DNA of 64,000 nucleotides from Acidobacteriota bacterium (GCA_029565065.1 JAKQOW010000018.1:4043-68042); one strand, 5' to 3'. Positions 1,101 through 43,810 are shown, counted from the stretch's first letter. The notes: generated from the sequence alone by a model not told the origin. Program-made: numbers and translations.

Positions 1101-1391
1101 GTGGAAAACAACCAGCGCCGCAGCAAACGCGTTCGCACCAATTTTTATATGAAGCTGAAGGGTGTGGACGTGCACGGCAAGTACTTCGAGGAAGTGGTAC
1201 AGACCGCGAACCTCAGCAAGACCGGCGCTCTGTTTGTCACCGAACGCGACCTCGAGGTGGGCACCAACGTATTCCTGTCGATCCCGCTGCCGTCCACGGT
1301 GGTGCGGATCGAAAAGTTCGAGAATTCCCGGGAGAAGAAGTACGCAGTCTATTTCAAGCCGTACCACCCCGAGGAAGAAGAAAAGAAGTAA
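1101..1391 (+). CDS. PilZ-domain c-di-GMP binding protein (96 aa, GTG start)
   Basis: RRSKRVR (RxxxR) followed by NLSKTGALF (D/NxSxxG) = the bipartite PilZ c-di-GMP motif. Single-domain size. Confidence 0.6.
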   Translation: MENNQRRSKRVRTNFYMKLKGVDVHGKYFEEVVQTANLSKTGALFVTERDLEVGTNVFLSIPLPSTVVRIEKFENSREKKYAVYFKPYHPEEEEKK

Positions 1392-28601: not shown

Positions 28602-30074
28602 ATGACCTGTCTAACGCTCAGCGGCTCAGCTTCCCTCAAACCGGACGGCAAGTCGCGCCCCCCCGCTCCGTGGTCGGCATTTGAACTGCGTTTGGACCTG
28701 CATCCCGACGCCGCGCTTCCGCCCGCCGGCGACTTGCCCGCCATCTACACGTGCCGCCGGCGGCAGGACGGCGGACGGTTCGCGGGCTCCGAGGTCGAGC
28801 GGGCGGCCGTGCTGCGGCGCGCTCTGGCCGCCTGCCGGCCGGATGACCGCATCGACATCGAGTGGGACAGCGCGTTCCGCGACTGGCCTCGTCGCCATCC
28901 CGGCACCGGATTCATCGTGTCATATCATAATTTGTCGGTCACTCCGCCGGATCTGGACGGAATTCTCACCCGAATGGCGGCGGAGCCGGCCCGTGAATAC
29001 AAAATCATCACCGCCGCCGGAACGTGGCGGGATATCGTCGCCATCAAGCGGCTCCTGGCCGAGGCCCGGCGGCGCGCCATCCCCCTGACGGCGTATTGCT
29101 GCGGTCCCCTCGGTCCCGTCAGCCGCCTGCTGGCCCTGGCGTGGGGCACCTGGCGGCTCTACCTGGCCGCCACACCGCTGGTGCCAGGCATGCTCACCAC
29201 GGCGGAGTTTTTCAAGGTGTATCGCGCCCAGCGGGTGAATGTCGGCAGCCGGCTCTATGGCGTGGCGGGATATCCGGTGGAACGGTCTCTCTCCCCCTGT
29301 TTGCACAACTGGTTGTTCGAGATCCGAACCAGTCCCGATCTCTACGTTCCCCTGCCCGTTCCCGATGCGGCTGATTTCCTGGCGGCCCTGCCCGACCTGG
29401 ACATCACCGGCCTGAGCGTGACCGTCCCGCTCAAGGAGCACCTGCAGGGCCTGTGCGTTTCCTGCAGCGACGAGGCCGCCCGCATCCGTGCCGTGAACAC
29501 CCTGACCCGCGTCGATGGTGGCTGGCACGGTGACAACACCGATTGGTCCGGTTTCCGCGACGGCGCGGCCGGATTCCTTCCGGCCGCCGGCCCGGTACTC
29601 GTCCTGGGAGCGGGCGGATCGGCTCGGGCGGTGATGTACGCGCTGGAGCGGGCGGGGATCAAGCCGTTCGTCTGGAACCGCAGTCGGGAGCGTCTGGAGC
29701 GCCTGCTTGCGGACTATCCGGCTGTCCGGCGATGGGACGTTTCCCGCGCTTCGACCGTTCAGGCGGTGATCAACACTCTGCCACACGCTGCCGTGACTAG
29801 GTTGGACGAAGTGGGTTTGGGCGGGCATCCGCCTGTGCCGGTCTTCGACTTGAATTACGGGTCTCCCGCCTCCCGCGTTCTGAGTGATGCCGCCGCCCGG
29901 CACTGGCCTGTCCAAGATGGCTTGTCCATGCTGTATCATCAGGCCCGTGCCCAGCACCGCCGCTGGACCGGCGGCGATCCCCCCGTGAGCTGGGACCAGG
30001 CCCGCCAACTGCTCCTTCAGGCGGTGAGGGAACGATCGTCGAACGGCGAGCCTTCTTCCGGCGGCGATGACTGA
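28602..30074 (+). CDS. aroDE: bifunctional 3-dehydroquinate dehydratase (type I) / shikimate 5-dehydrogenase fusion
   Basis: 490 aa. N-terminal half has the AroD-I catalytic region (REYKIITAAGTWRDIVAIKRL, CCGPLGPVSRLL). C-terminal half is AroE (RLYGVAGYPVERSLSP, NTDWSGF, LVLGAGGSARAVMYAL). Confidence 0.7.
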   Translation: MTCLTLSGSASLKPDGKSRPPAPWSAFELRLDLHPDAALPPAGDLPAIYTCRRRQDGGRFAGSEVERAAVLRRALAACRPDDRIDIEWDSAFRDWPRRHPGTGFIVSYHNLSVTPPDLDGILTRMAAEPAREYKIITAAGTWRDIVAIKRLLAEARRRAIPLTAYCCGPLGPVSRLLALAWGTWRLYLAATPLVPGMLTTAEFFKVYRAQRVNVGSRLYGVAGYPVERSLSPCLHNWLFEIRTSPDLYVPLPVPDAADFLAALPDLDITGLSVTVPLKEHLQGLCVSCSDEAARIRAVNTLTRVDGGWHGDNTDWSGFRDGAAGFLPAAGPVLVLGAGGSARAVMYALERAGIKPFVWNRSRERLERLLADYPAVRRWDVSRASTVQAVINTLPHAAVTRLDEVGLGGHPPVPVFDLNYGSPASRVLSDAAARHWPVQDGLSMLYHQARAQHRRWTGGDPPVSWDQARQLLLQAVRERSSNGEPSSGGDD

Positions 30075-32740
30075 GGCGGGCGTGGCTCCAGACCGAGCCG
30101 GACAGCCGTGAACGACCCCGCAAACCCAGGCAGGCAAAGTTCCAGCCACTCCTCGGGCCGGACCGCTCCCGCCGGACCAACGTAGGTCGTGAAGCTCAGC
30201 TCGACGGCCCGCCCCGACTCGGTTGCGTCGGCCGCCAGCAGGAGCGAGCGCACCTCGCGCAGACGGCCCTCCTTGCCCGGCCGGCGGTCGACTACGGACA
30301 GCGACTCCTGCGCCAGGAGCTGCCGGATTCGAGCACGCAGCACTTCCGGCCGCGCTTCCCGCACGTCCGTCAAGGCGGACGGTCCGTCCACAAGCTCCGC
30401 TGTGGGCACGTCGATGCGGAACCGGGCGATCCCGGCCCAGCGGTCGATCGACGGTGCGTCTTCCGGCAATGCCTCCATCCCGACGAACGCGACGCCTTCG
30501 ATGCTGACCGCGTTCAACGCCGCCAGAGCGGATTCGCCGTCGCACGCCGCGCCCAGCCACACGTCCGCGAGTTCCCGTTCCCCGCCCACCCCCACACCGA
30601 GCGCCGGTCCGAAACTCACCTGTGGCCGGGGATGAAAGCCCTGCGTGTAACTCAGGGGCAGGCCGGACCGCCGCAGAATCCGCTGCATGGTCCGGACCAG
30701 ATCCAGATGGGAGAGCCAGGCCGCCGGGCCCAACTTCGTGAAGGTGATGCGGTACCGTTGAGCGGTGGTCTCTGCGGCGCCGGCCGTCTCCGATGCGGCG
30801 ACTTCCGCCGCTCGCCGGCTCATCTCGGCCAGTGCCGCCACATTCTGTTCCCGGCGCTCACGCATCGACGGAATGTCGCATCCCGCCCCGCACGCCAGGC
30901 AATGCGTGGTCACCGGCTTGTCGGGCGCCGCGGCCGGTCGCACGCCGCATGCCGGCGTGGTCCGACCTTCACTCGCCGCCGCCCACTCCCGGCGTAGAAA
31001 GGGTTCCGATGCGCCCAGGTCGATGTGCCCCCACGGCAACTCGCCGCCGGGTATCACGGGGGCCAGATACACAGACGGATCCACACGACATCGCTCGAAC
31101 GCGGCAGCCCATTGGTCCGGCCGGAAACACTCATCCCACCCATCGAAGCGCGCGCCCGACCGCCAGGCGTCCAGGATGACCGGGGTCAGGCGGCGATCGC
31201 CGCGGGACAAGATCGCTTCCAGCCGGCTGAGCCGAGCGTCGTGCCACTTCAGACGCACTTCGCGGGAGCGGAGGTGTTGCCGCAGCATCCGTATCTTGCG
31301 GGTCAGCGTCTCTGGGGCATCCATGCCCGCCCATTGAAACGGCGTATGGGCCTTGGGGATGAAAGACGCCACGCTTAGATTGACCTGAAATTTGCGCCGG
31401 CGGCCGCGATAATCCGGCTCCGCGCGGACCACGGCCACGATCCGGTCGGCCAGTTCGGCGATGCCGGCCACGTCCGCGTCCGACTCGAACGGCAGACCGA
31501 TCATGAAATACAGCTTGATCAAATCCCATCCGGCGCGGAAGGCCGCCAGGATGCCCTCGAGAATTTCAGACTCGGTCAGGTTCTTGTTGATGCGGTCCCG
31601 CATGGCCTGCGTGCCCGCCTCCGGCGCCACCGTGAAACCGGTCTTGCGCGTTTCGGAAACGGCCGCCGCCAGCCGGGCGCTGAGTCCGGACACCCGGAGC
31701 GAAGGGAACGAGAGCGCGACCCGATCCTCCGCCAGCCGGCCGGCCAGGACTTCCGCCAACATTTCGATGCCGCCGAAATCGGCCGAAGACAGCGAGGCGA
31801 GTGACACCTCTTCGTAACCGGTGCGCGCCACTGCCGTCTGGACCCAGTCTACCAGATCCGCCGCGTCCCGCTCGCGCTGCGGCCGATAGAAGAACGAGGC
31901 GTGGCAGTAACGGCACCCCTGCAGGCAGCCACGGCTGATCTCGGCCGAAACCCGGTCATGGATGATCTCGGTGTTGGGTACCACCAGATTTACCGGCAGC
32001 GGCATGTCGGCCAACTCGGGCTGCCAGCGCCGCCGGACCGGCATCGGGAGTCCTTCCCGCCGGGCCTGCTCGGCATCCACGACCATCCAGGGACCCGCCG
32101 CCCGCACGGCATAAAGAGACGGCACGTACACACCCGGGATCTCGGTAAAAGCGCGCAGCCAGTCACACCGCCGGGCGAACGACCGCTTCTGCGGGCGCAG
32201 CTTCGCCTCCAGGCGGACGATTTCACCGAACGCCTCCTCCCCCTCACCGATGAGGAACAAGTCGAAGCAGTCAGCCATCGGCTCGGGATTGGACGCCACG
32301 GGGCCACCGCCGATGACCAGCGGTGCGTGCGGGTCCCGATCCCGCGTCAGGAGCGGGATGCCGGCCAGGTCGAGGAGGGTGATCACATTGGTGAAGGTCA
32401 TCTCGTAGAGCAGGGAGAATCCGATCACATCGCATTCGCCCAGCGTCAGGCCGCTATCCAACGACCGCAGGGGCAGCCCCAGACGGCGCAACCCCATTTC
32501 CATATCCGGCCACGGGCAATGGAACCGTTCCACGGCCACACCGTCTTCCCGGTTCAGCCGGTGATACAGCAACCGGGAACCCCAGTGCGACATGCCGATT
32601 TCGTATGTATCGGGAAACACCAGCGCCACCCGGCTGCGTGCCGTGACCGGATCCCGACGGATCACGTTGAATTCGCACCCGAGGTAGCGGACCGGTTTTT
32701 GCACGGTCCGCAGCAGGGTCGGTGGATACAACAGATTCAT
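30017..32740 (-). CDS. B12-binding radical SAM protein (TIGR03960-like) fused to TIGR03936/DUF2344-like C-terminal domain (907 aa)
   Basis: SRGCLQGCRYCHASF radical-SAM CxxxCxxC cluster motif after an N-terminal B12-binding-like region; about 300-aa C-terminal extension. 3' end overlaps the aroDE 3' end by 58 nt (convergent). Confidence 0.65.
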   Translation of the reverse strand: MNLLYPPTLLRTVQKPVRYLGCEFNVIRRDPVTARSRVALVFPDTYEIGMSHWGSRLLYHRLNREDGVAVERFHCPWPDMEMGLRRLGLPLRSLDSGLTLGECDVIGFSLLYEMTFTNVITLLDLAGIPLLTRDRDPHAPLVIGGGPVASNPEPMADCFDLFLIGEGEEAFGEIVRLEAKLRPQKRSFARRCDWLRAFTEIPGVYVPSLYAVRAAGPWMVVDAEQARREGLPMPVRRRWQPELADMPLPVNLVVPNTEIIHDRVSAEISRGCLQGCRYCHASFFYRPQRERDAADLVDWVQTAVARTGYEEVSLASLSSADFGGIEMLAEVLAGRLAEDRVALSFPSLRVSGLSARLAAAVSETRKTGFTVAPEAGTQAMRDRINKNLTESEILEGILAAFRAGWDLIKLYFMIGLPFESDADVAGIAELADRIVAVVRAEPDYRGRRRKFQVNLSVASFIPKAHTPFQWAGMDAPETLTRKIRMLRQHLRSREVRLKWHDARLSRLEAILSRGDRRLTPVILDAWRSGARFDGWDECFRPDQWAAAFERCRVDPSVYLAPVIPGGELPWGHIDLGASEPFLRREWAAASEGRTTPACGVRPAAAPDKPVTTHCLACGAGCDIPSMRERREQNVAALAEMSRRAAEVAASETAGAAETTAQRYRITFTKLGPAAWLSHLDLVRTMQRILRRSGLPLSYTQGFHPRPQVSFGPALGVGVGGERELADVWLGAACDGESALAALNAVSIEGVAFVGMEALPEDAPSIDRWAGIARFRIDVPTAELVDGPSALTDVREARPEVLRARIRQLLAQESLSVVDRRPGKEGRLREVRSLLLAADATESGRAVELSFTTYVGPAGAVRPEEWLELCLPGFAGSFTAVRLGLEPRPPQSSPPEEGSPFDDRSLTA

Positions 32741-32803: not shown

Positions 32804-33889
32804 TCAGACCGTGTATCGGTGGATCCGGAAGTTGATCAGCAGACCCATGGCCATGAACGCGGTGACCACCGACGAGCCGCCCCAACTAAGCGGCGGCAAG
32901 GGGATTCCGATCACCGGCATCAAGCCGAGGGTCATGCCGACGTTGATGGCCAGGTGCACGGCGTAGAGCGCAATGATGCCCGCGCTCGCATACATGGCCA
33001 TTCGATCCGAGGTTTCCATCGCGATCGCCAGGCCGCGCTGAAAGATCGCCCCATACAGCAGCAGCACCAGCACGGCGCCAATGAAACCCGTTTCCTCACC
33101 GACTACCGCATAGATGAAGTCGGTGTGGCGCTCGGGCAAGAAGCCCAGTGCCCCCTGACTGCCCTCGCCCAGTCCGCGTCCGGTGAATCCGCCGGATCCA
33201 ATGGCGATGACTGACTGGATGGTCTGGTATCCGGTGCCCTTTGGATCACGGCCCGGATCGGCGAGGACAAGAATCCGCTCTTTCTGGTAATCCCGGAGGA
33301 CGAACCAGGAGCTGGCCAGGAGCAGGATCAATATGACACCCGCCAGCGCCACCACCCGCTTGCGAATTCCCGCCAGCAGGATCAGCACGATGAACACGGG
33401 CATCATCGTCAGGGCTGTCCCGAGATCGCGTTGGAGGATGATCATGCCCGTTGGCACCAGCATGATCAGGCCGGCAACCAGCAGAGTGACCGGGCGCAGA
33501 TACCGTTCGGGATAGTCCGCCAGAAACTTGGCCAAGGTCAGGATGATGACCAGCTTGACCACCTCCGAAGGCTGGAATGTCACTCCGCCGAGCCGCAACC
33601 AGCTCTTGGACCCGTGGATCTCCACGCCGATCAGGAGCACCACGGCCAGAACCAGCACCGACAGAGCGTACAGGATCCAGATGTGGTTCAGGACGACGCG
33701 GTAGTCCACCCACAGCACCGCCACGAACAGCAGCATTCCCAAGCCGAGGCGCACCAGATGCTTCTCCAGGTAAGGCGAATCCCCCGCCACCTGCGTGGAG
33801 TAGTAGATCTCGACACAGCCGATCAGGCAGAGCATCAGGAAGGCTCCGACCAGTATCTTGTCGAACTGCCGCCAGTCTTTATTGCCCAT
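32804..33889 (-). CDS. rodA: rod shape-determining protein RodA (SEDS family)
   Basis: 361 aa polytopic; FQPSEVVKLVIILTLAKFL, ERHTDFIYAVVGEETGFIGA typical FtsW/RodA motifs. Confidence 0.85.
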   Translation of the reverse strand: MGNKDWRQFDKILVGAFLMLCLIGCVEIYYSTQVAGDSPYLEKHLVRLGLGMLLFVAVLWVDYRVVLNHIWILYALSVLVLAVVLLIGVEIHGSKSWLRLGGVTFQPSEVVKLVIILTLAKFLADYPERYLRPVTLLVAGLIMLVPTGMIILQRDLGTALTMMPVFIVLILLAGIRKRVVALAGVILILLLASSWFVLRDYQKERILVLADPGRDPKGTGYQTIQSVIAIGSGGFTGRGLGEGSQGALGFLPERHTDFIYAVVGEETGFIGAVLVLLLYGAIFQRGLAIAMETSDRMAMYASAGIIALYAVHLAINVGMTLGLMPVIGIPLPPLSWGGSSVVTAFMAMGLLINFRIHRYTV

Positions 33890-35693
33890 GGCGCGCCTCG
33901 ACCAATCGATCGGCTCCCGGCGGGGGGTAAAGTTCGAAGTACTTGCGCATCACTTCCCCCGCGATGGGCGCGGCGGCCGTTCCCCCGTGGCCGCCGTGTT
34001 CGATGATCACGGCCACAGCGATGCGGGGCTCGTCCACCGGCGCAAAGCAGGCGAACCAGGAATTCTCCTTGAACCGGGTCTCGTAATTTTTCAGCCGCTC
34101 GGCCGTTTCGGTGTTGATCAGCTGAGCGGTTCCGGTTTTGCCGGCGACGGTGATGCCCTCGAGCCGCGCCCGGGTGCCGGTCCCTGAATCCACCACCATC
34201 TGCATGCCTTGAACGATCCGGTGGTGCAGTGCGGCGGGCAGCAGCGACTTCCGGTCCGGCCGGGACCGGTCATCCGGCTCCAGTCGGAGCCGGGGCACCG
34301 GCGGCTCGGTGTTGAGCGCGACGGCGCACATGAACCGGGCTACCTGGATGGGGGTGACGGACACCGCGCCTTGGCCGATGGCCACCGAGATTGTCTCTCC
34401 CGAATACCATTTCTGACCAAAGACACGTTGCTTCCATTCGCTGGAAGGCATCAGGCCGGCCCGCTCCGACGGCAGGTCGACCCCGCTCTTCACGCCCAAC
34501 CCCATGCGCACCGCCCAGTGATGAATCCGATCAACGCCCAGGCGGATCCCCACATTGTAAAAATAGATGTTGCAGCTATTGGCGATGGCGTCCAACAGGC
34601 TCACCGCGCCGTGGCCTGACGCATTCCAGCAATGGACCAGCCGGCCCAGCATCATGGTTTCGCCGGTACAGCTGAACTGGGTGTCTTCGGTGATGACGCC
34701 CTCCGCCAGGGCCGCCGTCGCCACCAGAATCTTGAAAATGGAGCCGGGGGCAAAGGCGCCCTGAATTACCTTGTTCTGCAGCGGCTTGTCCGGGTCTTCG
34801 ACCAGCTGGCGCCACTGGGCCGGCGTCAACTGGTTGACGAACAGGTTGGGGTCGAACTCCGGTTTGCTGACCAGGCAATATAATTCGCCGGTTCGGACAT
34901 CCATGGCAACCAGCGCGCCTTTCTGCCCTTCCATCAACTCCTCGGCCCTGCGCTGCAGTTCCGTGTCGATGGATAAGGTGAGGTCATGGCCCTTGCTTGA
35001 CGGGATCCGCTCCACCACCTGCGTGATCTGCCCGATGCTGTTGATGAAGACCTTCTGCTGCCCCTTGTCGCCGCCGAGCATCGAGTCGTAGAATCGCTCC
35101 AGACCGGTCTTGCCGACGATATCGCCCGGCCGCCGGCTTGCGAACGCCGTCTGTTTGAGTTCCCCGGGCGTGACCTCGCCCACGTAGCCATTCAGATGCG
35201 ACGCCATGGAACCCAACAGGTAGCGGCGGGTGGGCACCCACTCGAGCGTCAGCTCGGGAAAGCGCTCGAAATGAGCTTCGGCGAACGCAATCTCGGCAAA
35301 GCTGAGCCGGTTTTTAAGCACGATGGGGAACACGGTCGGCACCCGCCGGTATTCTTCCAGCTTCCGGTCCACAAAAGCCGGGTCCAGGCCGAACCGCTCG
35401 CGCAGCACGCGGAGCAGCATCTGATGATCTTTCATGTACTCCCGGCGAAGCACCAGCGAAAACGAGATCTCGTTGTCCACCAGCAGCCGGCCTTGCCGGT
35501 CCATGATGAGGCCGCGGGGCGCAGGAAGTTCGATGATCCGGAGGCGGTTCTGCTCAGCCTTTTCCCGGTAGTAGTCCGCCCGCGTGATCTGCAGATACCA
35601 GAGCCGGCCGAACAACACCAGCAGCACGCCGCCCAGGGCCAATTCAAACAGAATCAGGCGTTTCTGGAAGAGACTGCCGCTCGGGCCGAACAT
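33879..35693 (-). CDS. mrdA: penicillin-binding protein 2 (elongasome transpeptidase)
   Basis: 604 aa; N-terminal TM; PAPRGLIMDRQGRLLVDN; SxxK (STFK-like GSIFK), SxN, KTGT motifs. Confidence 0.85.
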   Translation of the reverse strand: MFGPSGSLFQKRLILFELALGGVLLVLFGRLWYLQITRADYYREKAEQNRLRIIELPAPRGLIMDRQGRLLVDNEISFSLVLRREYMKDHQMLLRVLRERFGLDPAFVDRKLEEYRRVPTVFPIVLKNRLSFAEIAFAEAHFERFPELTLEWVPTRRYLLGSMASHLNGYVGEVTPGELKQTAFASRRPGDIVGKTGLERFYDSMLGGDKGQQKVFINSIGQITQVVERIPSSKGHDLTLSIDTELQRRAEELMEGQKGALVAMDVRTGELYCLVSKPEFDPNLFVNQLTPAQWRQLVEDPDKPLQNKVIQGAFAPGSIFKILVATAALAEGVITEDTQFSCTGETMMLGRLVHCWNASGHGAVSLLDAIANSCNIYFYNVGIRLGVDRIHHWAVRMGLGVKSGVDLPSERAGLMPSSEWKQRVFGQKWYSGETISVAIGQGAVSVTPIQVARFMCAVALNTEPPVPRLRLEPDDRSRPDRKSLLPAALHHRIVQGMQMVVDSGTGTRARLEGITVAGKTGTAQLINTETAERLKNYETRFKENSWFACFAPVDEPRIAVAVIIEHGGHGGTAAAPIAGEVMRKYFELYPPPGADRLVEARHGQ

Positions 35694-36187
35694 TATGGCT
35701 GCTCCACCTCAAACAGATCGGCGGGCGGCCGGACGATCAGCATGCGCACAACCACGTTCCCGCATGCCGTGGCGGCCGCTCCCAGCAGGAGCGGGGTGAG
35801 CGACTGGGCGGGACAGGTCTGCCCGAAGATGACAAAAAGTCCCACAACGGCCAAGTTGTTGGCGCAGGCGAGCACGAAGACAAAGAGCGACTGGAGGGCC
35901 GGGTGGTCCATGTTGATGCGCCGGCACGCGAGGCTGGACAGGAAGCCGGCCGCCATCTTGGTGGTCGCCTGAATGCCCAGCGGATAGAATGGTGACAGAG
36001 TGAGATCGTGAGCCAGACCCGCCAGCCAGCCCCGCCAGACCGACTGAAGGGGGGTCGAACGGGTGGCGGCGTGGAACGTCAGGATCAGGATGAAATCCAT
36101 GAAACGCAAAGGTGCCCACACCTGCGGCAATACATATTGCAGGCCGGTCGCCACGACCAGCAACAGGAGGAACACCCAGGTTTTCAT
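35693..36187 (-). CDS. mreD: rod shape-determining protein MreD
   Basis: 164 aa polytopic membrane protein, placed between mreC and mrdA. Confidence 0.6.
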   Translation of the reverse strand: MKTWVFLLLLVVATGLQYVLPQVWAPLRFMDFILILTFHAATRSTPLQSVWRGWLAGLAHDLTLSPFYPLGIQATTKMAAGFLSSLACRRINMDHPALQSLFVFVLACANNLAVVGLFVIFGQTCPAQSLTPLLLGAAATACGNVVVRMLIVRPPADLFEVEQP

Positions 36188-37011
36188 GGCGCCGCTCCGG
36201 CCGTGCGCTTCAACACGAACACGTACCGGCAGCGGCTTGCATCCACCGCCGGCTGGACCTTGATCTCCTGGAAATACTGACCCGACTGGTCCGCCTCGAT
36301 GATGCGGCCGACGGTCAGGCCGGGTGGGAAAATGCCATCGTCACCGGAGGTGTGGATCCAATCGCCCGCCTTCACGGGTGCGGCGATGTGTACATAGTCG
36401 AACTTCAGATGATACCGTCCGGCACCGTGGATGATCCCGCGGATGCCCCGGGACTGAATGATCCCAGCCAAGGCAAACCCGGCGTTGGTCACCAGGGCGA
36501 CCTGGCTGTGTGCGAGCCCCGCAAGTTGGATCCGGCCCACCACGCCCCGCGTGTCCAACACCGGGAGATCCGGGACAACCCCGTCCTGGTAGCCGCCCCG
36601 GATGGTGAGAGTCCGGTCCCACACCTGGAAGCCGCGCATGGTGACCTCCGCCAGCACGGCATCGCGTCCGAATTCCGGCAGCACCCGCACCATGCGCTCC
36701 AGGCTGGCTGATCGGTCCAGCCGCTCTTCCATGAGCGTCTGCTGGATGCGGGCTTCAGCCAGCCGGCGCTTGAGAGCCAAGTTTTCGTCCTTGAGTTCCT
36801 TGACGGTGCGGAACGCCGACAACCAGTCGCCCAGGGCCGCCATGCCGCCGCCGGCGGCCGAGGCCAGCGGCAGAAACAGGTTGGCACAGACCGACTTCAA
36901 TACCGTCTCCCCGCGGCTGGTCTTGAACTGCAGAGACACCGCCACCAGATTCAGGACCAGCAGCGCGGACAAGAGCTGATATGATTTCAGGGACCTCAAC
37001 AGGTGGATCAT
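36184..37011 (-). CDS. mreC: rod shape-determining protein MreC
   Basis: 275 aa; N-terminal TM, coiled-coil (ENLALKRRLAEARIQQ), beta-rich C-terminal domain. Confidence 0.75.
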   Translation of the reverse strand: MIHLLRSLKSYQLLSALLVLNLVAVSLQFKTSRGETVLKSVCANLFLPLASAAGGGMAALGDWLSAFRTVKELKDENLALKRRLAEARIQQTLMEERLDRSASLERMVRVLPEFGRDAVLAEVTMRGFQVWDRTLTIRGGYQDGVVPDLPVLDTRGVVGRIQLAGLAHSQVALVTNAGFALAGIIQSRGIRGIIHGAGRYHLKFDYVHIAAPVKAGDWIHTSGDDGIFPPGLTVGRIIEADQSGQYFQEIKVQPAVDASRCRYVFVLKRTAGAAP

Positions 37012-37049: not shown

Positions 37050-38081
37050 TTAAATGGCCACCTTCCGCAACAGATCGAAGTTGCTGAGCATTTTGCCGAC
37101 CCCGAGAGCCACGCCGAAGAGCGGATTTTCTGCGATGAACACCGGCAGCTTGGTCTCGTCCATGATGCGCTTGTCCAGGCTCTTGAGGAGAGCGCCGCCG
37201 CCGGTCAGGACGATGCCCCGATCCACGATGTCAGCGGACAGCTCAGGCGGCGTCCGCTCCAGAGCGACGCGCAGGGCGTTGATGATCGTCGTGTTGCAGT
37301 CCGACAGCGCCTCGCGGATTTCCGAGTCGGTGATCACCAGGTTCTTGGGAATGCCGTCGATCAGGTTGCGTCCCTTGATCTCCATCGTCAGCTCTTTTTC
37401 CAGGGGGAAGGCGGAGCCGATTTCGATCTTGATCTGTTCGGAGGTTCGCTCGCCGATGAGAAGGTTGTGCTTGCGCTTGATGTACTGGATGATGGCCTCG
37501 TCCATCTCATCCCCGGCCACCTTGACCGTTCGGCTGTACACAATGCCGGAGAGGCTGATGACGGCGATATCGGTGGTGCCTCCGCCGATGTCCACAATCA
37601 TGTTTCCGGACGGCTCGGTGATCGGCAGCCCGGCGCCGATGGCGGCGGCCATCGCCTCCTCGACCAAGTAGACTTCGCTCACCTTGGCCCGAAGGGCGGA
37701 TTCCTTCACCGCCCGCTTCTCCACCTGGGTGATCTCCGACGGTACTCCGATCACCACGCGGGGGCTGATCAGATATTCCCGGTTGTGGGCTTTCTTGATG
37801 AAATACTTGAGCATCTGCTCGGTGGTGTCGAAATCGGCGATGACCCCGTCCTTCATGGGCCGGATGGCGACGATGTTGCCGGGGGTTCGGCCCAGCATCT
37901 CTTTGGCCTCGCGGCCCACCGCTTCGATGCGGTTGGTCAGCTTGTTGATGGCGACGATGGACGGCTCATTGAGCACGATGCCCTTGTTCTTGGCGTAGAC
38001 CACGGTGTTCGCCGTGCCCAAGTCGATCGCCAGGTCGGTGGAAAAGACACTGAATAGGGAACGCCAGTTCATGAGGATCAA
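37050..38081 (-). CDS. mreB: rod shape-determining protein MreB (actin homologue)
   Basis: DLAIDLGTANTVVYAKNKGIVLNEPSIVAI...DIGGGTTDIAV...LTGGGALL near-identical pattern to E. coli MreB. Confidence 0.92.
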   Translation of the reverse strand: MILMNWRSLFSVFSTDLAIDLGTANTVVYAKNKGIVLNEPSIVAINKLTNRIEAVGREAKEMLGRTPGNIVAIRPMKDGVIADFDTTEQMLKYFIKKAHNREYLISPRVVIGVPSEITQVEKRAVKESALRAKVSEVYLVEEAMAAAIGAGLPITEPSGNMIVDIGGGTTDIAVISLSGIVYSRTVKVAGDEMDEAIIQYIKRKHNLLIGERTSEQIKIEIGSAFPLEKELTMEIKGRNLIDGIPKNLVITDSEIREALSDCNTTIINALRVALERTPPELSADIVDRGIVLTGGGALLKSLDKRIMDETKLPVFIAENPLFGVALGVGKMLSNFDLLRKVAI

Positions 38082-39481
38082 CCTGCTATCATGATTTTGT
38101 TTTTCGATTCTTCCTTCGCCGCATACATCGCCGCGTCGGCCTTCTGGAGCAACCCTTCCGCCGTCATGGAATGTTCGGGGAAAGATGCAATGCCGATGCT
38201 GACGGTGAGCCGAAGCTTGAGGTCCCGGCCGCCGCTGAACAGAAAATGCTCCACCCGTTGGCGCAGGCGCTCGGCAATGACCTGGGCGCCCTCGAGGGGA
38301 GTTTCCGGCAGGATGATTACGAACTCGTCGCCGCCGTACCGGACGATGACGTCCGAATCGCGAACCTGCTTCCCGAAAATCTGCCCAACCTCGCAGAGCG
38401 TGGCGCTGCCCACGAGGTGGCCATAAGTATCGTTGACGTTCTTGAAGTTGTCAATATCGATGAACAAGATGGACAGGTTCTTTTCGTACCGGAGGCTGCG
38501 CTGGATCTCAAATCCCAGAAACTGCCTCAGGTAGCGGAAATTGTACAGGCTGGTGAGATCGTCGGTGATGGTCAGGCGCTGGACGCGTTCATGATACACC
38601 AGGCTGTCGTAGATCAGATTGAACGGGTGGCTGAGGATCTGCATGTACTGCCGGTCGAATTCGGTGAAACCGCCCGGACTCTTCTTGTTGACCGCCAGGA
38701 ACAAGCCGTTGGAGTGGTTCAGGCTTTTGAACGGATATGCCAGCACCGAACGGATCATGCAGGCCGGTTGGTTGCCGTACGATTCGATCTCGTAATCGAA
38801 GGTGTTGTCCAGCATGGGATCGCCCTTCTGGAAGATGTCCTCGAGGATCACGTTGTTGAACTTGAAGTCCAGCAGCTTGTTTTCCTCGAAGATGTTCCGG
38901 ATGGCGTAGATCAGCTCGAGGAGCTTGCGCTCCTCATTGTAAATGTAGATCAGGAAATTCTCCGCATCCAGGATGCGGCACATCAGCAGTGCGAATTCCT
39001 TGAAAATTGTGTCCTTGTCCTGGTTCAGATTGAGGATGTCGAGGACTTCCTGAAATAACGTGATGATCTTGGTGTCATCGATTTGCTGCAAGGCCAGTTT
39101 TTTCTCAATTTCACGGAGCAGCGACGAGTTGTGGTTGTAGATGTATTCCACCAGGGAAGCGGTGATGGGGAGAAACACATGCAGTGAAAAATTGAGCTCC
39201 CGCGAAATCGCATTGTAGTCCGGATGAGGTTCGGTGGAATAAGAAACGAATTCCGCCAGTGGAAAGATGGTGCGGATCTCTTTGTAGAAAACGTTCTTGT
39301 CCCGCTTCAGCGGGAAGAACACCAGCTTACAGTAGGGATCTTCCTTGAGCAGGTTCTTGCGCAACCGGTCCAGCGAGACGAAGGACATTCGACCCTGCAG
39401 ATCGCCGCCGGCTCCCAAGTCGGGCACTTCCTGCTCGTAGACAAAACAGATTTCGCCGGCTGGCTTGCTGACGGATCGCAT
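38078..39481 (-). CDS. GAF-like sensor + GGDEF diguanylate cyclase (467 aa)
   Basis: C-terminal GGDEF domain with intact active-site RYGGDEF and upstream I-site-like RxxD. About 290-aa N-terminal sensor region. ATGA overlap with mreB start; 3-nt gap to the upstream FecR-like gene. Confidence 0.8.
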   Translation of the reverse strand: MRSVSKPAGEICFVYEQEVPDLGAGGDLQGRMSFVSLDRLRKNLLKEDPYCKLVFFPLKRDKNVFYKEIRTIFPLAEFVSYSTEPHPDYNAISRELNFSLHVFLPITASLVEYIYNHNSSLLREIEKKLALQQIDDTKIITLFQEVLDILNLNQDKDTIFKEFALLMCRILDAENFLIYIYNEERKLLELIYAIRNIFEENKLLDFKFNNVILEDIFQKGDPMLDNTFDYEIESYGNQPACMIRSVLAYPFKSLNHSNGLFLAVNKKSPGGFTEFDRQYMQILSHPFNLIYDSLVYHERVQRLTITDDLTSLYNFRYLRQFLGFEIQRSLRYEKNLSILFIDIDNFKNVNDTYGHLVGSATLCEVGQIFGKQVRDSDVIVRYGGDEFVIILPETPLEGAQVIAERLRQRVEHFLFSGGRDLKLRLTVSIGIASFPEHSMTAEGLLQKADAAMYAAKEESKNKIMIAG

Positions 39482-39484
39482 GGA

Positions 39485-40735
39485 TCAGTCCATCTTGATC
39501 GTTTTGTTGATCCGGCGCACCGCGCCGCTGTAATCCTTGATCACGATCTCCAATCGAGCTTCCGCCCCCCTGGCGAAGGGATCCGTGAAGTGTTTAAACG
39601 TGCCGTCCTTTTCCAGGATGACCATCCGGCCGTTGATGGTCAGGAGGTTGTCCGGATCGGTGCGGCCAATGACTTCCAGGATGTTGCCGATCACCACGAT
39701 CTCGGTCAGGTCAAAACGAATGGATTCGCTGGGATTGAGTTTCTGCGGCCGGATACCGAACATGCTTGTGGCACTGGGGTATCCTTCGACATTGTTACTA
39801 TCGATCGCCGTCACCCGCCAGTAGTAGTTGCCGTACGCCAATCCCGAGACGGTCAGCGAGTCTTTGCCGGTGACAACCCGCTCGAAGAGCTTCTGGTAAA
39901 ACTGGGGGTGGTTGGAAATGGCCACCCGGTAACTGTGGGTGGCGTTCACGACCTGCCACTGGAACCGGATGTTGACCCGCTCGGGATCCTTCGCGGAAAA
40001 GATCTCCGACGTGAGGGGCGCCAGTAGAATCGGCCCCGGAGGCAGCGTGCGTTTCTGCATCGCGCCGTCCTGGACGTTGACAGATTCGTTGCCGCGCACC
40101 ACCATCGAATCGCGCGTTTCTTTCGAGGTGACGGCCGCCTGCCCCTGGGAAACCTTCAGGCCGGTGTCCTTAAGGCGGTCGTCATACGTGGCGCTGGCTC
40201 GCGTGTTGGAACCGACGTCCGCAACCGTGTTGGCCGTCTCCACCTTCGTCCTGGATTGCGGCGTGTTCTTCTGATACGTGGACAAATCCAGCGCGCCGGT
40301 GGCCAATTCCACGTTCACGCTGCGGGTCAGATTGGAGGGGTTCTCGTAGCTTTCGAGGATCGAAACCAGCGAATTGGACTTGACTTCGTATATCGTCCCG
40401 TCGAAGAAGACCACCCGGCAACTGCTGTTGGCGCCCGTCCGGACAAGGTCGCCGGGATACAGGCGCTCCACCTTGTCGGCGGCAACCCACTCCAGCGAAT
40501 CCAGCGGTTTGACCTTGACATCGCCGTCCAGGTAGGTGAATTGGGCGGCGCGTTTTTCCAGCACCTCCGGTTGAGCGTCGGTGGATTTGCCGCCGACGGC
40601 GATGCCGTACTTGTTGATGAACCAGAGGCCTACGCCGAACACCACCGCCAGGACGACGATGATCCAGAACCGCAGCGTCCGGTAAGGGATCGTGGTCCAC
40701 TCAATATACTCGATGACCCGCCGCTCTTTGGGCAT
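39485..40735 (-). CDS. membrane-anchored FecR-domain-like protein (416 aa)
   Basis: Start re-set to ATG 40735 (MPKERRV...) downstream of a promoter. TM WIIVVLAVVFGVGLWF. GDLVRTGANSSCRVVFFDGTIYEVKSNSLVSI resembles FecR/anti-sigma sensing domain. The ORF-track TTG start at 40825 lies in the promoter. Confidence 0.45.
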   Translation of the reverse strand: MPKERRVIEYIEWTTIPYRTLRFWIIVVLAVVFGVGLWFINKYGIAVGGKSTDAQPEVLEKRAAQFTYLDGDVKVKPLDSLEWVAADKVERLYPGDLVRTGANSSCRVVFFDGTIYEVKSNSLVSILESYENPSNLTRSVNVELATGALDLSTYQKNTPQSRTKVETANTVADVGSNTRASATYDDRLKDTGLKVSQGQAAVTSKETRDSMVVRGNESVNVQDGAMQKRTLPPGPILLAPLTSEIFSAKDPERVNIRFQWQVVNATHSYRVAISNHPQFYQKLFERVVTGKDSLTVSGLAYGNYYWRVTAIDSNNVEGYPSATSMFGIRPQKLNPSESIRFDLTEIVVIGNILEVIGRTDPDNLLTINGRMVILEKDGTFKHFTDPFARGAEARLEIVIKDYSGAVRRINKTIKMD

Positions 40736-40783
40736 GGGAAATGTGCCGTTCAGCCCCTGTAAACTCTTTATCCGCCGGGAAAG

Positions 40784-40812
40784 ATCATATAGAATGAAAT
40801 AGTTGATTTCAA
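40784..40812 (-). promoter_or_regulatory. sigma-70 promoter for FecR-like/GGDEF/mreBCD-mrdA-rodA transcript
   Basis: Minus strand TTGAAA-17 nt-TATGAT in an AT-rich island (40740-40830) within an otherwise GC-rich region. Confidence 0.4.
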
Positions 40813-40866
40813 TATGATTTTTCAATCACGTCGGCGCAACAACTCGATGACGCATTCGAGGCGGAT

Positions 40867-41226
40867 ATGACCAATGGCGGACTCAACGAAGAGGATGTGC
40901 GGCCATGGGGCCGATTCATCGTGCTGGACGAAGGGCCAAACTTCAAGGTGAAGCGGATCGAGGTGGCTGCCGGCAAGCGGCTCAGCCTCCAGTCGCACCA
41001 GCACCGCCGTGAACAATGGACGGTCGTACAGGGAGAAGCCGTGGTGAGCATCGACGGCGCGGATCATCGGCTGGTTCCGGGTGACAGCACGTTCATCCCA
41101 CGGCAAGCCCGCCACCGGGTGGCCAATCCCGGGCCCGCGCCGCTGGTGTTCATCGAGGTCCAGACCGGCGACTATCTGGGCGAGGACGACATCACCCGTC
41201 ACCAGGACGATTTCGACCGAGCCTGA
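40867..41226 (+). CDS. stand-alone cupin, mannose-6-phosphate isomerase type II C-terminal-like
   Basis: 119 aa; RPWGRF..L......VKRI.V..G..LSLQSHQHRREQWTVVQGEA...IP...HR..N pattern of the ManC cupin domain. Confidence 0.55.
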   Translation: MTNGGLNEEDVRPWGRFIVLDEGPNFKVKRIEVAAGKRLSLQSHQHRREQWTVVQGEAVVSIDGADHRLVPGDSTFIPRQARHRVANPGPAPLVFIEVQTGDYLGEDDITRHQDDFDRA

Positions 41227-42542: not shown

Positions 42543-43067
42543 ATGTCGGCCAATCTGCCCTCACACATCGACCTTACAAAATTGCGCGAAATATTTCTAG
42601 CGCTGGCTAAACGAAGGGTCCGCGATGAGCAGGATGCGGAAGAAATCGTGCAGGATGCGCTGATGACTGTCGTTGAAAAATCCGCTTCGCAAACCTTCGA
42701 AAAAAGCTTCCTCCAGTGGGCATTCGGCGTGCTGCGCAACAAGATCGGCAACTATTACCAGCAACGCGAGCGGCGCCATCGCACGACCGAAGAGATGACC
42801 GAGGACACGGAGCGGACGCTCCAGTCCGGTTTACCGGACCCGCTGTCAATGTCCACCGAGGCTGAACTTCGCAGCAAGATCCAGCGCTCCTGGCGGCAGC
42901 TCGGCGGCCAGTGCCGGCGGCTGTTGTGAATGCTGTACTCCGGGTATTCGCGTGAAGAGATCTTCGCCGAATTTCCCCAATATCATTTCAAGGTGGTCAA
43001 CACGAAGATCTTCCGCTGTCGGAATTACCTGCGCCGGCTGTTCCGCCAAGAGGGGTATTCACTATGA
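42543..43067 (+). pseudogene. ECF (group 4) sigma-70 factor interrupted by an in-frame TGA at 42927-42929
   Basis: Region 2 (EEIVQDALMTVVEK...FLQWAFGVLRNKIGNYY) is in ORF 42543..42929. Region 4.2 (YSGYSREEIFAEFPQYHFKVVNTKIFRCRNYLRRL) continues in the same frame right after the TGA (ATG 42930) up to TGA 43065-43067. An alignment-contiguous sigma factor is split by a single stop codon. Confidence 0.55.
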
Positions 43068-43810
43068 ACTGTCGTGACAGCCGAATCAAGCGGCTGCTGC
43101 CTCTCTACGAAGCCGGGCTGCTCAATCTCCAGGAAGCCGGCGAGGTGGAGACGCATCTCCTGTCGTGCCCCGGCTGTGCCGAGGAGATGTTTGCGATGCA
43201 GCCGGTGATAACCGCTATCCGGGGAATGGAAAGTCCGCTGGACTCGGTCGAGGAGCCCGGCTTCCTGGTGCGGTTTGTCTCGTTGCGCTGGGCCAGCGTG
43301 GCCACCGCGGCCGCATTGCTGGTGGTGGTCTGCACGTCCGCCTGGCTGTTGCTGCCCGGTTGGCTGTCCACGCCGCCCTACCCGCCGGCAGCCGATCTGG
43401 CGCGCTCCCTGCAGCATCTGGAGCAGATGGGCATGGACGACTATGCCAGCTTGACGCCGAGCGATTCCCGGTTCGTCACCGCGCTGGGCTTGTTTCGGCA
43501 AAACCGGGCCCGCGACGCGCTGGCGGCCGTGACACCCGCGCTGCCACCCGTCGGTCAGTCCTCGCCGGCCGTACACCTGGCCGCCCGGTGCCACCTGGCG
43601 CTGGATCGGCCGGAAGCCGCCCAGCGCCTGCTGGCGCAGCATCCGGTTTCGCCTGGCGACACCCGGTACCGGGATTACCTGTGGATCCGCGCCGTGGCCT
43701 CCCTGCGCCGCGGCCGGCATGACGCCGCCATCACCGATCTGGAGGAGCTGGCCCGCCATCCGGGCGCCAACCAGGCGGCATCCGCCGATCTGCTCGAGAA
43801 GGTGCGCTGA
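43064..43810 (+). CDS. zinc-finger (zf-HC2) anti-sigma factor with membrane anchor and TPR-like periplasmic region
   Basis: THLLSCPGCAEE = H-x3-C-x2-C ZAS motif at N-terminus; TM VATAAALLVVVCTSAWLLL; ATGA overlap with the sigma gene end. Confidence 0.6.
   Translation: MNCRDSRIKRLLPLYEAGLLNLQEAGEVETHLLSCPGCAEEMFAMQPVITAIRGMESPLDSVEEPGFLVRFVSLRWASVATAAALLVVVCTSAWLLLPGWLSTPPYPPAADLARSLQHLEQMGMDDYASLTPSDSRFVTALGLFRQNRARDALAAVTPALPPVGQSSPAVHLAARCHLALDRPEAAQRLLAQHPVSPGDTRYRDYLWIRAVASLRRGRHDAAITDLEELARHPGANQAASADLLEKVR

Follow-up and report, generated by a model that had tools for sequence, protein, structure and literature searches.

A predicted Hypr-class GGDEF enzyme gene directly upstream of mreB in a rod-shape operon of Acidobacteriota

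In a 64,000-nucleotide (nt) stretch of DNA from an uncultured Acidobacteriota bacterium (GCA_029565065.1, JAKQOW010000018.1:4043-68042; the whole stretch is called the window below), a gene for a GGDEF-domain enzyme stands directly in front of the elongasome genes mreB-mreC-mreD-mrdA-rodA. Our preferred reading, to which we assign a probability of roughly 0.55, is that seven genes form a unit with one promoter, in which a GGDEF enzyme of the Hypr class and a FecR/immunoglobulin (Ig)-like protein are co-expressed with these five genes and cyclic GMP-AMP (cGAMP) is tied to wall growth. An initial annotation of the locus, made from the sequence alone, had proposed that synthesis of cyclic di-GMP (c-di-GMP) is co-regulated with wall growth. 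The idea of co-regulation is in keeping with an intact GGDEF gene tightly packed into the elongasome series, but the messenger is likelier to be 3',3'-cGAMP than c-di-GMP alone. The window is identical to metagenome contigs of several samples, and its nearest named proteins belong to Acidobacteriota.

The catalytic domain (residues 305-467 plus stop codon; 38078..38569, minus strand, as all operon features below) matches PF00990 with 158 bits (cutoff 23.8) and TIGR00254 with 177.7 bits. No equivalog model of NCBIfam was reached by the protein, and Pfam and NCBIfam assign it a generic GGDEF domain only. As annotated initially, the active site is intact: the RYGGDEF motif has the inhibitory site RDSD five residues upstream, and an alignment of 24 orthologs shows little or no variation at D342, D344, N350, K447 and K456. 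In Foldseek comparisons the domain superimposes on solved GGDEF domains with a root-mean-square deviation of 1.4-2.3 Å, and the model of the whole protein comes closest to the sensor-coiled-coil-GGDEF cyclases PadC, DgcR, PleD and WspR. The best sequence match in the PDB is the Hypr GGDEF domain of Geobacter metallireducens GacA (6d9m_A; E = 1.3e-42, 148.7 bits); the highest-scoring canonical domain reached 120 bits. This alignment pairs S359 with Ser348, N350 with Asn339, D385 with Asp374 and F315 with Tyr304 of GacA; besides N350, the key positions are encoded at 38539-38537 (F315), 38407-38405 (S359), 38362-38351 (RDSD) and 38335-38321 (GGDEF).

Canonical diguanylate cyclases have GHxxGD as their specificity segment; in the mreB-linked family it reads GHLVGS. 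Hypr enzymes are distinguished by Ser or Thr at GmGacA position 348, where the residue touches the base on its Watson-Crick face, and exchange of this residue in GacA (S348D) results in a pure diguanylate cyclase (PMC6456294). According to the Goldilocks model described in the same work, Ser348 enzymes need the central Asp of GGDE[F/Y]. The cross-dimer position 304 is occupied by Arg in 94% of predicted cyclases, which gives more c-di-GMP, and cGAMP predominates in Hypr enzymes with Tyr, Ser, Ala or Gln at this position; Hypr enzymes also make c-di-GMP in vitro, some of them mostly so (PMC6456294). All three sequence hallmarks of Hypr GGDEF domains were found in the window protein. Likewise, the Ser348 equivalent (GHxxGS), GGDEF and RxxD are present in 51 of the 51 mreB-linked orthologs with a readable GGDEF domain, while residue 304 is Phe in the clade of the window protein (3 loci), Ser in loci L012, L013 and L015, and Tyr in the 45 loci of the main clade. 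As a control, we inspected 44 GGDEF domains of loci not linked to mreB, taken from the matches listed in a motif scan of genome contigs. Position 348 is Asp in 41 of these paralogs, Asn in two and Ser in one, and 34 have Arg at position 304. Within the main clade the GGDEF domains are 93% identical, the N-terminal domains 46%.

The mreB-linked enzymes are thereby assigned to a distinct Hypr clade. Because the full Hypr signature is present and 6D9M is the closest solved relative, their product is likely to be 3',3'-cGAMP, possibly together with c-di-GMP. The plain diguanylate cyclase of the initial annotation is not what the sequence predicts; the Hypr signature, with Ser at the substrate-specificity position, had been overlooked. 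The single Ser-type enzyme among the unlinked paralogs (L014, JBBTBW010000001.1) comes from a deltaproteobacterial metagenome-assembled genome. It is a GAF-GGDEF protein not encoded beside mreB, has the sequence pattern LYNSRF...LRGS...GGDEF, and shares 27% identity with the window protein in residues 90-374. It is perhaps a relative of the GacB type and could represent an outgroup of the acidobacterial clade.

The GAF-GGDEF architecture proposed initially comprises two domains that are both present, but a further N-terminal domain of about 118 amino acids (aa) had been missed. This domain (residues 1-118; 39128..39481) is predicted by AlphaFold2 as alternating strands and helices with a predicted local distance difference test score (pLDDT) of ~70-86, and P20, F73, P74, A76, Y81 and P105 are invariant. 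Residues 1-118 gave no Pfam match and have no relative among PDB sequences. The predicted order of strands and helices gives the impression of a receiver-like fold, which we do not claim. A search with residues 1-300 returned only five representative clusters at E <= 1e-10; thus, the sensor region is family-specific. It is continued by a coiled-coil linker and the GAF domain (~residues 135-300; 38582..39079), the latter identified through the orthologs and a family profile. In the window protein itself the GAF_2 score of 18.8 bits stays below the Pfam threshold of 28.6, but orthologs pass the thresholds of GAF or GAF_2, and a search with the family profile hit GAF domains of PDE5 (E = 7.8e-11), PDE10A, PDE2A, PDE6 and Leptospira Lcd1. 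In the matches to solved GAF domains the NK..F...D motif is aligned, which corresponds to N265-K-x5-F272-x3-D276 here. The GAF domain is classified by these matches as the cyclic-nucleotide-binding type, and its position N-terminal to the GGDEF domain is that of GacB from Myxococcus.

Conservation of the junction between the GGDEF gene and mreB was assessed at 48 informative ortholog loci, comprising seven exact-protein look-ups, four genome loci and 37 metagenome loci. In all 48, mreB follows immediately downstream of the GGDEF gene; the synteny check suggested with the initial annotation is thus strongly positive. The seven looked-up homologs (P0119, P0012, P0060, P0014, P0021, P0110 and P0102; 36-55% identity), one of which is named Terriglobia/Acidobacteriia, all precede mreB-mreC-mreD-PBP2-rodA. 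That motif scan of genome contigs, run with the ortholog alignment, yielded L011, L012 (gp22), L013 (Blastocatellia) and L015 as orthologous loci among the matches listed, the remainder being mostly generic GGDEF paralogs; these four have the same GGDEF-mreB arrangement. A metagenome scan, for which only the sensor part of the main clade served as query, gave 44 loci, and mreB came next in 37 of the 37 that reach past the gene, with a spacer of 4-9 nt in 35 of them. Altogether, the spacer is 2-9 nt long at 44 of 49 measured junctions including that of the window, or at 43 of 48 without it. Where taxa are named, the linked loci belong exclusively to Acidobacteriota, including Terriglobia, Blastocatellia and gp22. 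The junction is thus kept between lineages that share no more than 20-24% identity in their sensor regions, and no ortholog away from mreB was found among the loci examined. In the main clade the stop codon of the GGDEF gene lies within an AGGA Shine-Dalgarno-like sequence (TAG GAAnT ATG), a layout typical of genes that are presumably coupled in translation.

In the window, the order of genes from the FecR-like gene to rodA is as initially annotated, all on the minus strand and each with a Pfam match. The 416-aa FecR-domain membrane protein (39485..40735; Pfam FecR, homolog alignment, AlphaFold2) ends with TGA at 39487-39485, and the GGDEF gene (39481-38078, 467 aa) starts with an ATG 3 nt further on, again as described before. 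By contrast, the ATGA overlap postulated for the GGDEF gene and mreB does not exist: the GGDEF stop codon (TGA, 38080-38078) is separated by the 5-nt spacer TCCTC (38073..38077) from the ATG of mreB at 38072, a start that agrees with the N-termini of MreB homologs, and only a mechanically called TTG at 38081 overlaps the stop (gTTGA). The elongasome part consists of mreB (37050..38072, 340 aa; Pfam MreB_Mbl 487 bits, NCBIfam MreB 524 bits), mreC (36184..37011; Pfam MreC 117 bits), mreD (35693..36187, 164 aa), mrdA encoding the PBP2 transpeptidase (33879..35693; Pfam PBP_dimer and Transpeptidase) and rodA encoding the SEDS polymerase (32804..33889; Pfam FTSW_RODA_SPOVE 299 bits). The Pfam MreD match is weak (15.5 bits), and mreD was assigned also by its conserved position and the MreD match of its ortholog in L093. 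A 38-nt gap separates mreB and mreC, and overlaps of 4, 1 and 11 nt join mreC to mreD, mreD to the PBP2 gene and the latter to rodA; as in mreBCD-mrdAB operons, the five genes are contiguous or overlapping on one strand. No terminator-like site was detected at any junction from the FecR-like gene to rodA, and the 5-nt spacer in front of mreB leaves no room for a promoter or terminator. The spacing predicts that the GGDEF enzyme is very probably co-expressed with the elongasome genes.

The sigma-70-like promoter proposed for the FecR-like gene (TTGAAA-17-TATGAT) is indeed present as a predicted site at 40812..40784, with 10 of 12 matches in a consensus scan. Of the four promoter-like sites in 9 kb (1.7 would be expected by chance) it scores highest, and it lies in a 131-nt AT-rich divergent intergenic region bordered on the other side by a plus-strand cupin gene (40867-41226). 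A similarly placed sequence (TTGCAT-17-TATTAT) is found upstream of the ortholog in L008. A mechanically called TTG start of the FecR-like gene at 40825 would precede the promoter and was rejected; ATG 40735 is most likely the start, and yields 416 aa, in agreement with the homologs and with the gene calls of other contigs. Another sigma-70-like site (TTGACA-17-GATACT, 38454..38426, minus strand, 10 of 12 matches) is located inside the GGDEF gene about 350 nt before mreB; it is formed by conserved codons (IDIDNF...NDT) and absent from this place in 11 related loci.

The FecR-like protein matches Pfam FecR (PF04773) with 31.7 bits (cutoff 24). Residues 18-43 are predicted as a transmembrane helix; a short cytoplasmic tail precedes it, and a periplasmic FecR beta-domain, an FN3-like domain and, at the C-terminus, an Ig-like domain follow. 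In the AlphaFold2 model (pLDDT 85) the periplasmic part is all-beta, and Foldseek ranked the periplasmic domains of FecR-family anti-sigma factors (4m0n, 6ovk) highest, together with FN3 arrays. The fold of this beta-domain (PF04773) is common to the FecR/PupR anti-sigma factors, from which the protein differs by the lack of an anti-sigma domain, by its additional FN3-like and Ig-like domains and by having a GGDEF enzyme instead of an extracytoplasmic function (ECF) sigma factor as partner. An anti-sigma function was rejected also in view of the only ~17 residues before the transmembrane helix and the lack of an adjacent ECF sigma gene; the immediate neighbors are the cupin and GGDEF genes. 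About 2 kb upstream of the operon lies an ECF sigma gene (Sigma70_r2) with a zf-HC2/TPR anti-sigma-like gene behind it (42543-43810, plus strand). Since this pair is self-contained, it is unlikely to have the FecR-like protein as anti-sigma factor.

Full-length FecR-like homologs are encoded upstream of the GGDEF gene in L008, L091, L012 and L013. At the corresponding position the main clade has an open reading frame of 240-260 aa without Pfam match, which represents a shortened FecR-like homolog (35-42% identity) in which the membrane anchor, the FecR domain in its first half and the Ig-like domain at the C-terminus are still present. Thus, the module recurrently has a membrane-anchored, predicted periplasmic protein as its third member. 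The tail motif IEWTTIPYRT (residues 9-19) is kept even in homologs of 25-30% identity (P0146-P0150). Its conservation suggests that a partner in the cytoplasm docks to this peptide; in the shortened homologs of the main clade the tail is not clearly kept.

The closest counterpart in overall design, as judged from its published description, is GacB (MXAN_2643) of Myxococcus xanthus, with a GAF domain N-terminal to a Hypr GGDEF domain with RxxD. GacB acts as a GMP-AMP cyclase that is activated by cyclic AMP via its GAF domain, subject to inhibition by c-di-GMP through the inhibitory site, and linked to osmotic stress (10.1101/600031), the last being an envelope-related condition. Cross-inhibition by c-di-GMP via the inhibitory site is a plausible further common trait. 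Unlike GacB, the enzyme described here has the additional ~118-aa N-terminal domain, belongs to Acidobacteriota rather than Myxococcota, and is encoded 5 nt before mreB and downstream of a FecR-like gene, whereas the GacB paper (10.1101/600031) does not mention mreB. GacA of Geobacter (GSU1658/Gmet_1914; 6D9M; PMC6456294), a Rec-Hypr GGDEF protein, has the closest solved catalytic domain (Foldseek, 45% identity, 1.6 Å). GacA and the window family are identical in GHLVGS and in GGDEF with its Asp, and the main clade also shares Tyr304 of GacA, in place of which the window protein has Phe. The sensor of GacA is a receiver domain, as opposed to the N-terminal and GAF domains here, and GacA acts on extracellular electron transfer via cGAMP riboswitches, none of which was found in the window. 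Bd0367 of Bdellovibrio bacteriovorus, a promiscuous GGDEF enzyme of the Ser type, makes cGAMP that controls gliding motility, an envelope-spanning process (PMC9140294); its domain architecture and genomic context differ, and MreB is not mentioned in that report.

Based on these likenesses we can outline how the predicted unit may work. The cytoplasmic enzyme would condense ATP and GTP to 3',3'-cGAMP, possibly along with some c-di-GMP. By analogy with Myxococcus GacB, binding of a cyclic mononucleotide to the GAF domain may switch the enzyme on, and c-di-GMP bound at the RxxD site may cross-inhibit it. The output of cGAMP would follow expression of the elongasome, and because its synthesis would be coupled to that of MreB, we speculate that the messenger reports on or tunes lateral wall growth. 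The periplasmic partner may feed envelope information to the enzyme, and a direct protein-protein role of the enzyme at the elongasome is possible. It is tempting to extend this scheme to several major lineages of Acidobacteriota, which would have built a module for cGAMP, not c-di-GMP, into the elongasome: the FecR/Ig-like protein would sense peptidoglycan or the envelope and signal via its tail, the Hypr GGDEF enzyme, gated by a cyclic mononucleotide, would make cGAMP, and the messenger or the enzyme would adjust MreB-directed synthesis. As a whole, we regard this extension as rather unlikely; if true, it would be the first housekeeping, cell-shape role of bacterial 3',3'-cGAMP.

Several points weigh against our preferred reading, and some of them lend themselves to other explanations. 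With regard to the messenger, the assignment of cGAMP is derived from sequence, Hypr enzymes yield c-di-GMP too, and Phe304 of the window clade does not occur in any Hypr enzyme cited in PMC6456294. Hence the enzyme might be an ordinary c-di-GMP-specific diguanylate cyclase whose product is co-regulated with the elongasome and perhaps read by a PilZ protein such as that encoded at 1101-1391. This would be compatible with the intact GGDEF motif, metal- and phosphate-binding residues and RxxD site, with the finding that Hypr enzymes produce some and in certain cases mostly c-di-GMP (PMC6456294), and with the true presence of a PilZ gene in the window. We nevertheless consider it doubtful, as the Asp that confers GTP specificity is replaced by an invariant Ser (GacA S348D being a pure diguanylate cyclase), the cross-dimer Arg of 94% of predicted cyclases is missing in each of the 51 orthologs, a cGAMP synthase is the nearest relative of solved structure, and the PilZ gene is 36 kb off with no linkage found.

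With regard to coupling, co-transcription of the GGDEF gene and mreB is a prediction from gene spacing, and five of the 49 junctions measure 88-203 nt (111-203 in L012, L013 and L015; 88 in L097 and L098). Such spacers could hold a separate mreB promoter, and that of L012 contains the promoter-like sequence TTGACT-17-TAATAT. The second promoter-like site of the window operon, within the GGDEF gene, probably matches by chance, though it could be a clade-specific mreB promoter. The locus itself revealed neither a cGAMP receptor nor a riboswitch or phosphodiesterase. Moreover, three Acidobacteriota loci sampled from the MreB side (L139, L140 and L141; ~80% identity in MreB, long contigs) lack the GGDEF gene and have a SurA-like gene directly upstream of mreB. 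It follows that the elongasome does not require the GGDEF enzyme, and the linkage is not a general property of acidobacterial elongasomes: every enzyme copy seen is mreB-linked, but not every acidobacterial elongasome operon carries the enzyme. These operons, the longer spacers with promoter-like sequences in some lineages and the lack of an effector connecting the messenger to MreB would all fit an adjacency that is historical only, without functional tie to wall elongation. Such an explanation is improbable given a junction present in 48 of 48 loci with sensor domains 20-24% identical and a 2-9-nt spacer in 43, no ortholog at another genomic position, and an upstream membrane protein that is also kept in some form; neutral adjacency seldom lasts at such divergence. 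Finally, the enzyme might serve the elongasome chiefly as a structural or regulatory partner, with its N-terminal domain binding, for example, MreB or the FecR-like tail, and cyclase activity being secondary or local. The 93% identity of the GGDEF domain in the main clade exceeds the usual need of catalysis, the N-terminal domain is family-specific, and a motif in the cytoplasmic tail of the membrane partner is conserved. We rate this proposal as quite improbable all the same, because the catalytic and specificity residues are all invariant, which points to selection on activity, and because binding to MreB or to the FecR-like tail is hypothetical.

In the three operons without the GGDEF gene, the SurA-like gene is divergent from mreB, as in the main clade, and the intervening 200-440 nt are empty. 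This suggests that precisely this position has acquired or lost the membrane-protein and GGDEF genes together, as a cassette. Transposase or integrase genes lie nearby in L140 and L141.

To our knowledge, Hypr GGDEF enzymes are regarded as rare and have been studied in a few bacteria only, and we know of almost no experimental signaling biology in Acidobacteriota. Known roles of Hypr enzymes are in electron transfer, gliding and development. One Hypr enzyme, Cabther_A1065, presumably originates from an acidobacterium, Chloracidobacterium thermophilum. It is cited as having Arg at position 304 (PMC6456294), in contrast to Ser304 in the Blastocatellia ortholog L013. Ties between the GGDEF family or c-di-GMP and growth have been described for RgsP of Rhizobiales (PMC6107284), for the control of cell size in Anabaena (PMC9927289) and for the coupling of envelope biosynthesis to c-di-GMP (bioRxiv 10.64898/2026.06.11.731730); to the extent that these three sources were accessible, they concern c-di-GMP or degenerate domains, and none describes an enzyme inside an mreB-rodA operon or a Hypr signature. 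Hypr GGDEF domains as such and the GAF-Hypr architecture are already known. By contrast, the searchable literature yielded no description of a Hypr clade heading an mreB-rodA operon, of its N-terminal domain or of the FecR/Ig-like partner. The comparative evidence is strong and suggests an undescribed link between cGAMP and cell-wall elongation: an entire predicted Hypr clade with a sensor architecture of its own is fixed at the start of the rod-shape operon in Acidobacteriota that are abundant in soil and sediment. If our preferred reading is true, cGAMP would be linked to core cell-wall growth, a membrane partner and candidate input signals would be identified, and the annotation of such genes as "diguanylate cyclase" would name the wrong messenger.

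The open reading frame at 1101-1391 (plus strand) encodes, as initially annotated, a stand-alone PilZ protein of 96 aa (PF07238, 34 bits; cutoff 22.5) with the motifs RRSKR (RxxxR) and NLSKTG ([D/N]xSxxG). Nothing ties this gene to the elongasome locus 36 kb away, however, and if the operon enzyme makes cGAMP, the PilZ protein is not an obvious receptor.

No RNA element reached the Rfam gathering threshold in the window, and none was found at E <= 1 in the 32-42 kb region. In four genomes (the window, L007, L008 and L092) the GGDEF gene has the lowest G+C content of the operon, in the window 0.54 as against 0.60-0.65. Horizontal transfer was rejected as the reason: the G+C content at third codon positions is 0.77 versus 0.81-0.86 in the neighbors, and relatives share the dip. 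The low G+C content is due to the amino-acid composition of the protein, which contains many K, N, I, F, Y and E residues. Downstream of rodA, after 63 nt, a gene for a 907-aa radical-SAM protein (Radical_SAM_N2, B12-binding, DUF2344) occupies 30017-32740 on the minus strand. A radical-SAM gene also follows rodA in L008 (55% identity level), whereas in the main clade this place is taken by an RNase E/G gene, which recalls the mreBCD-...-rng arrangement of Proteobacteria.

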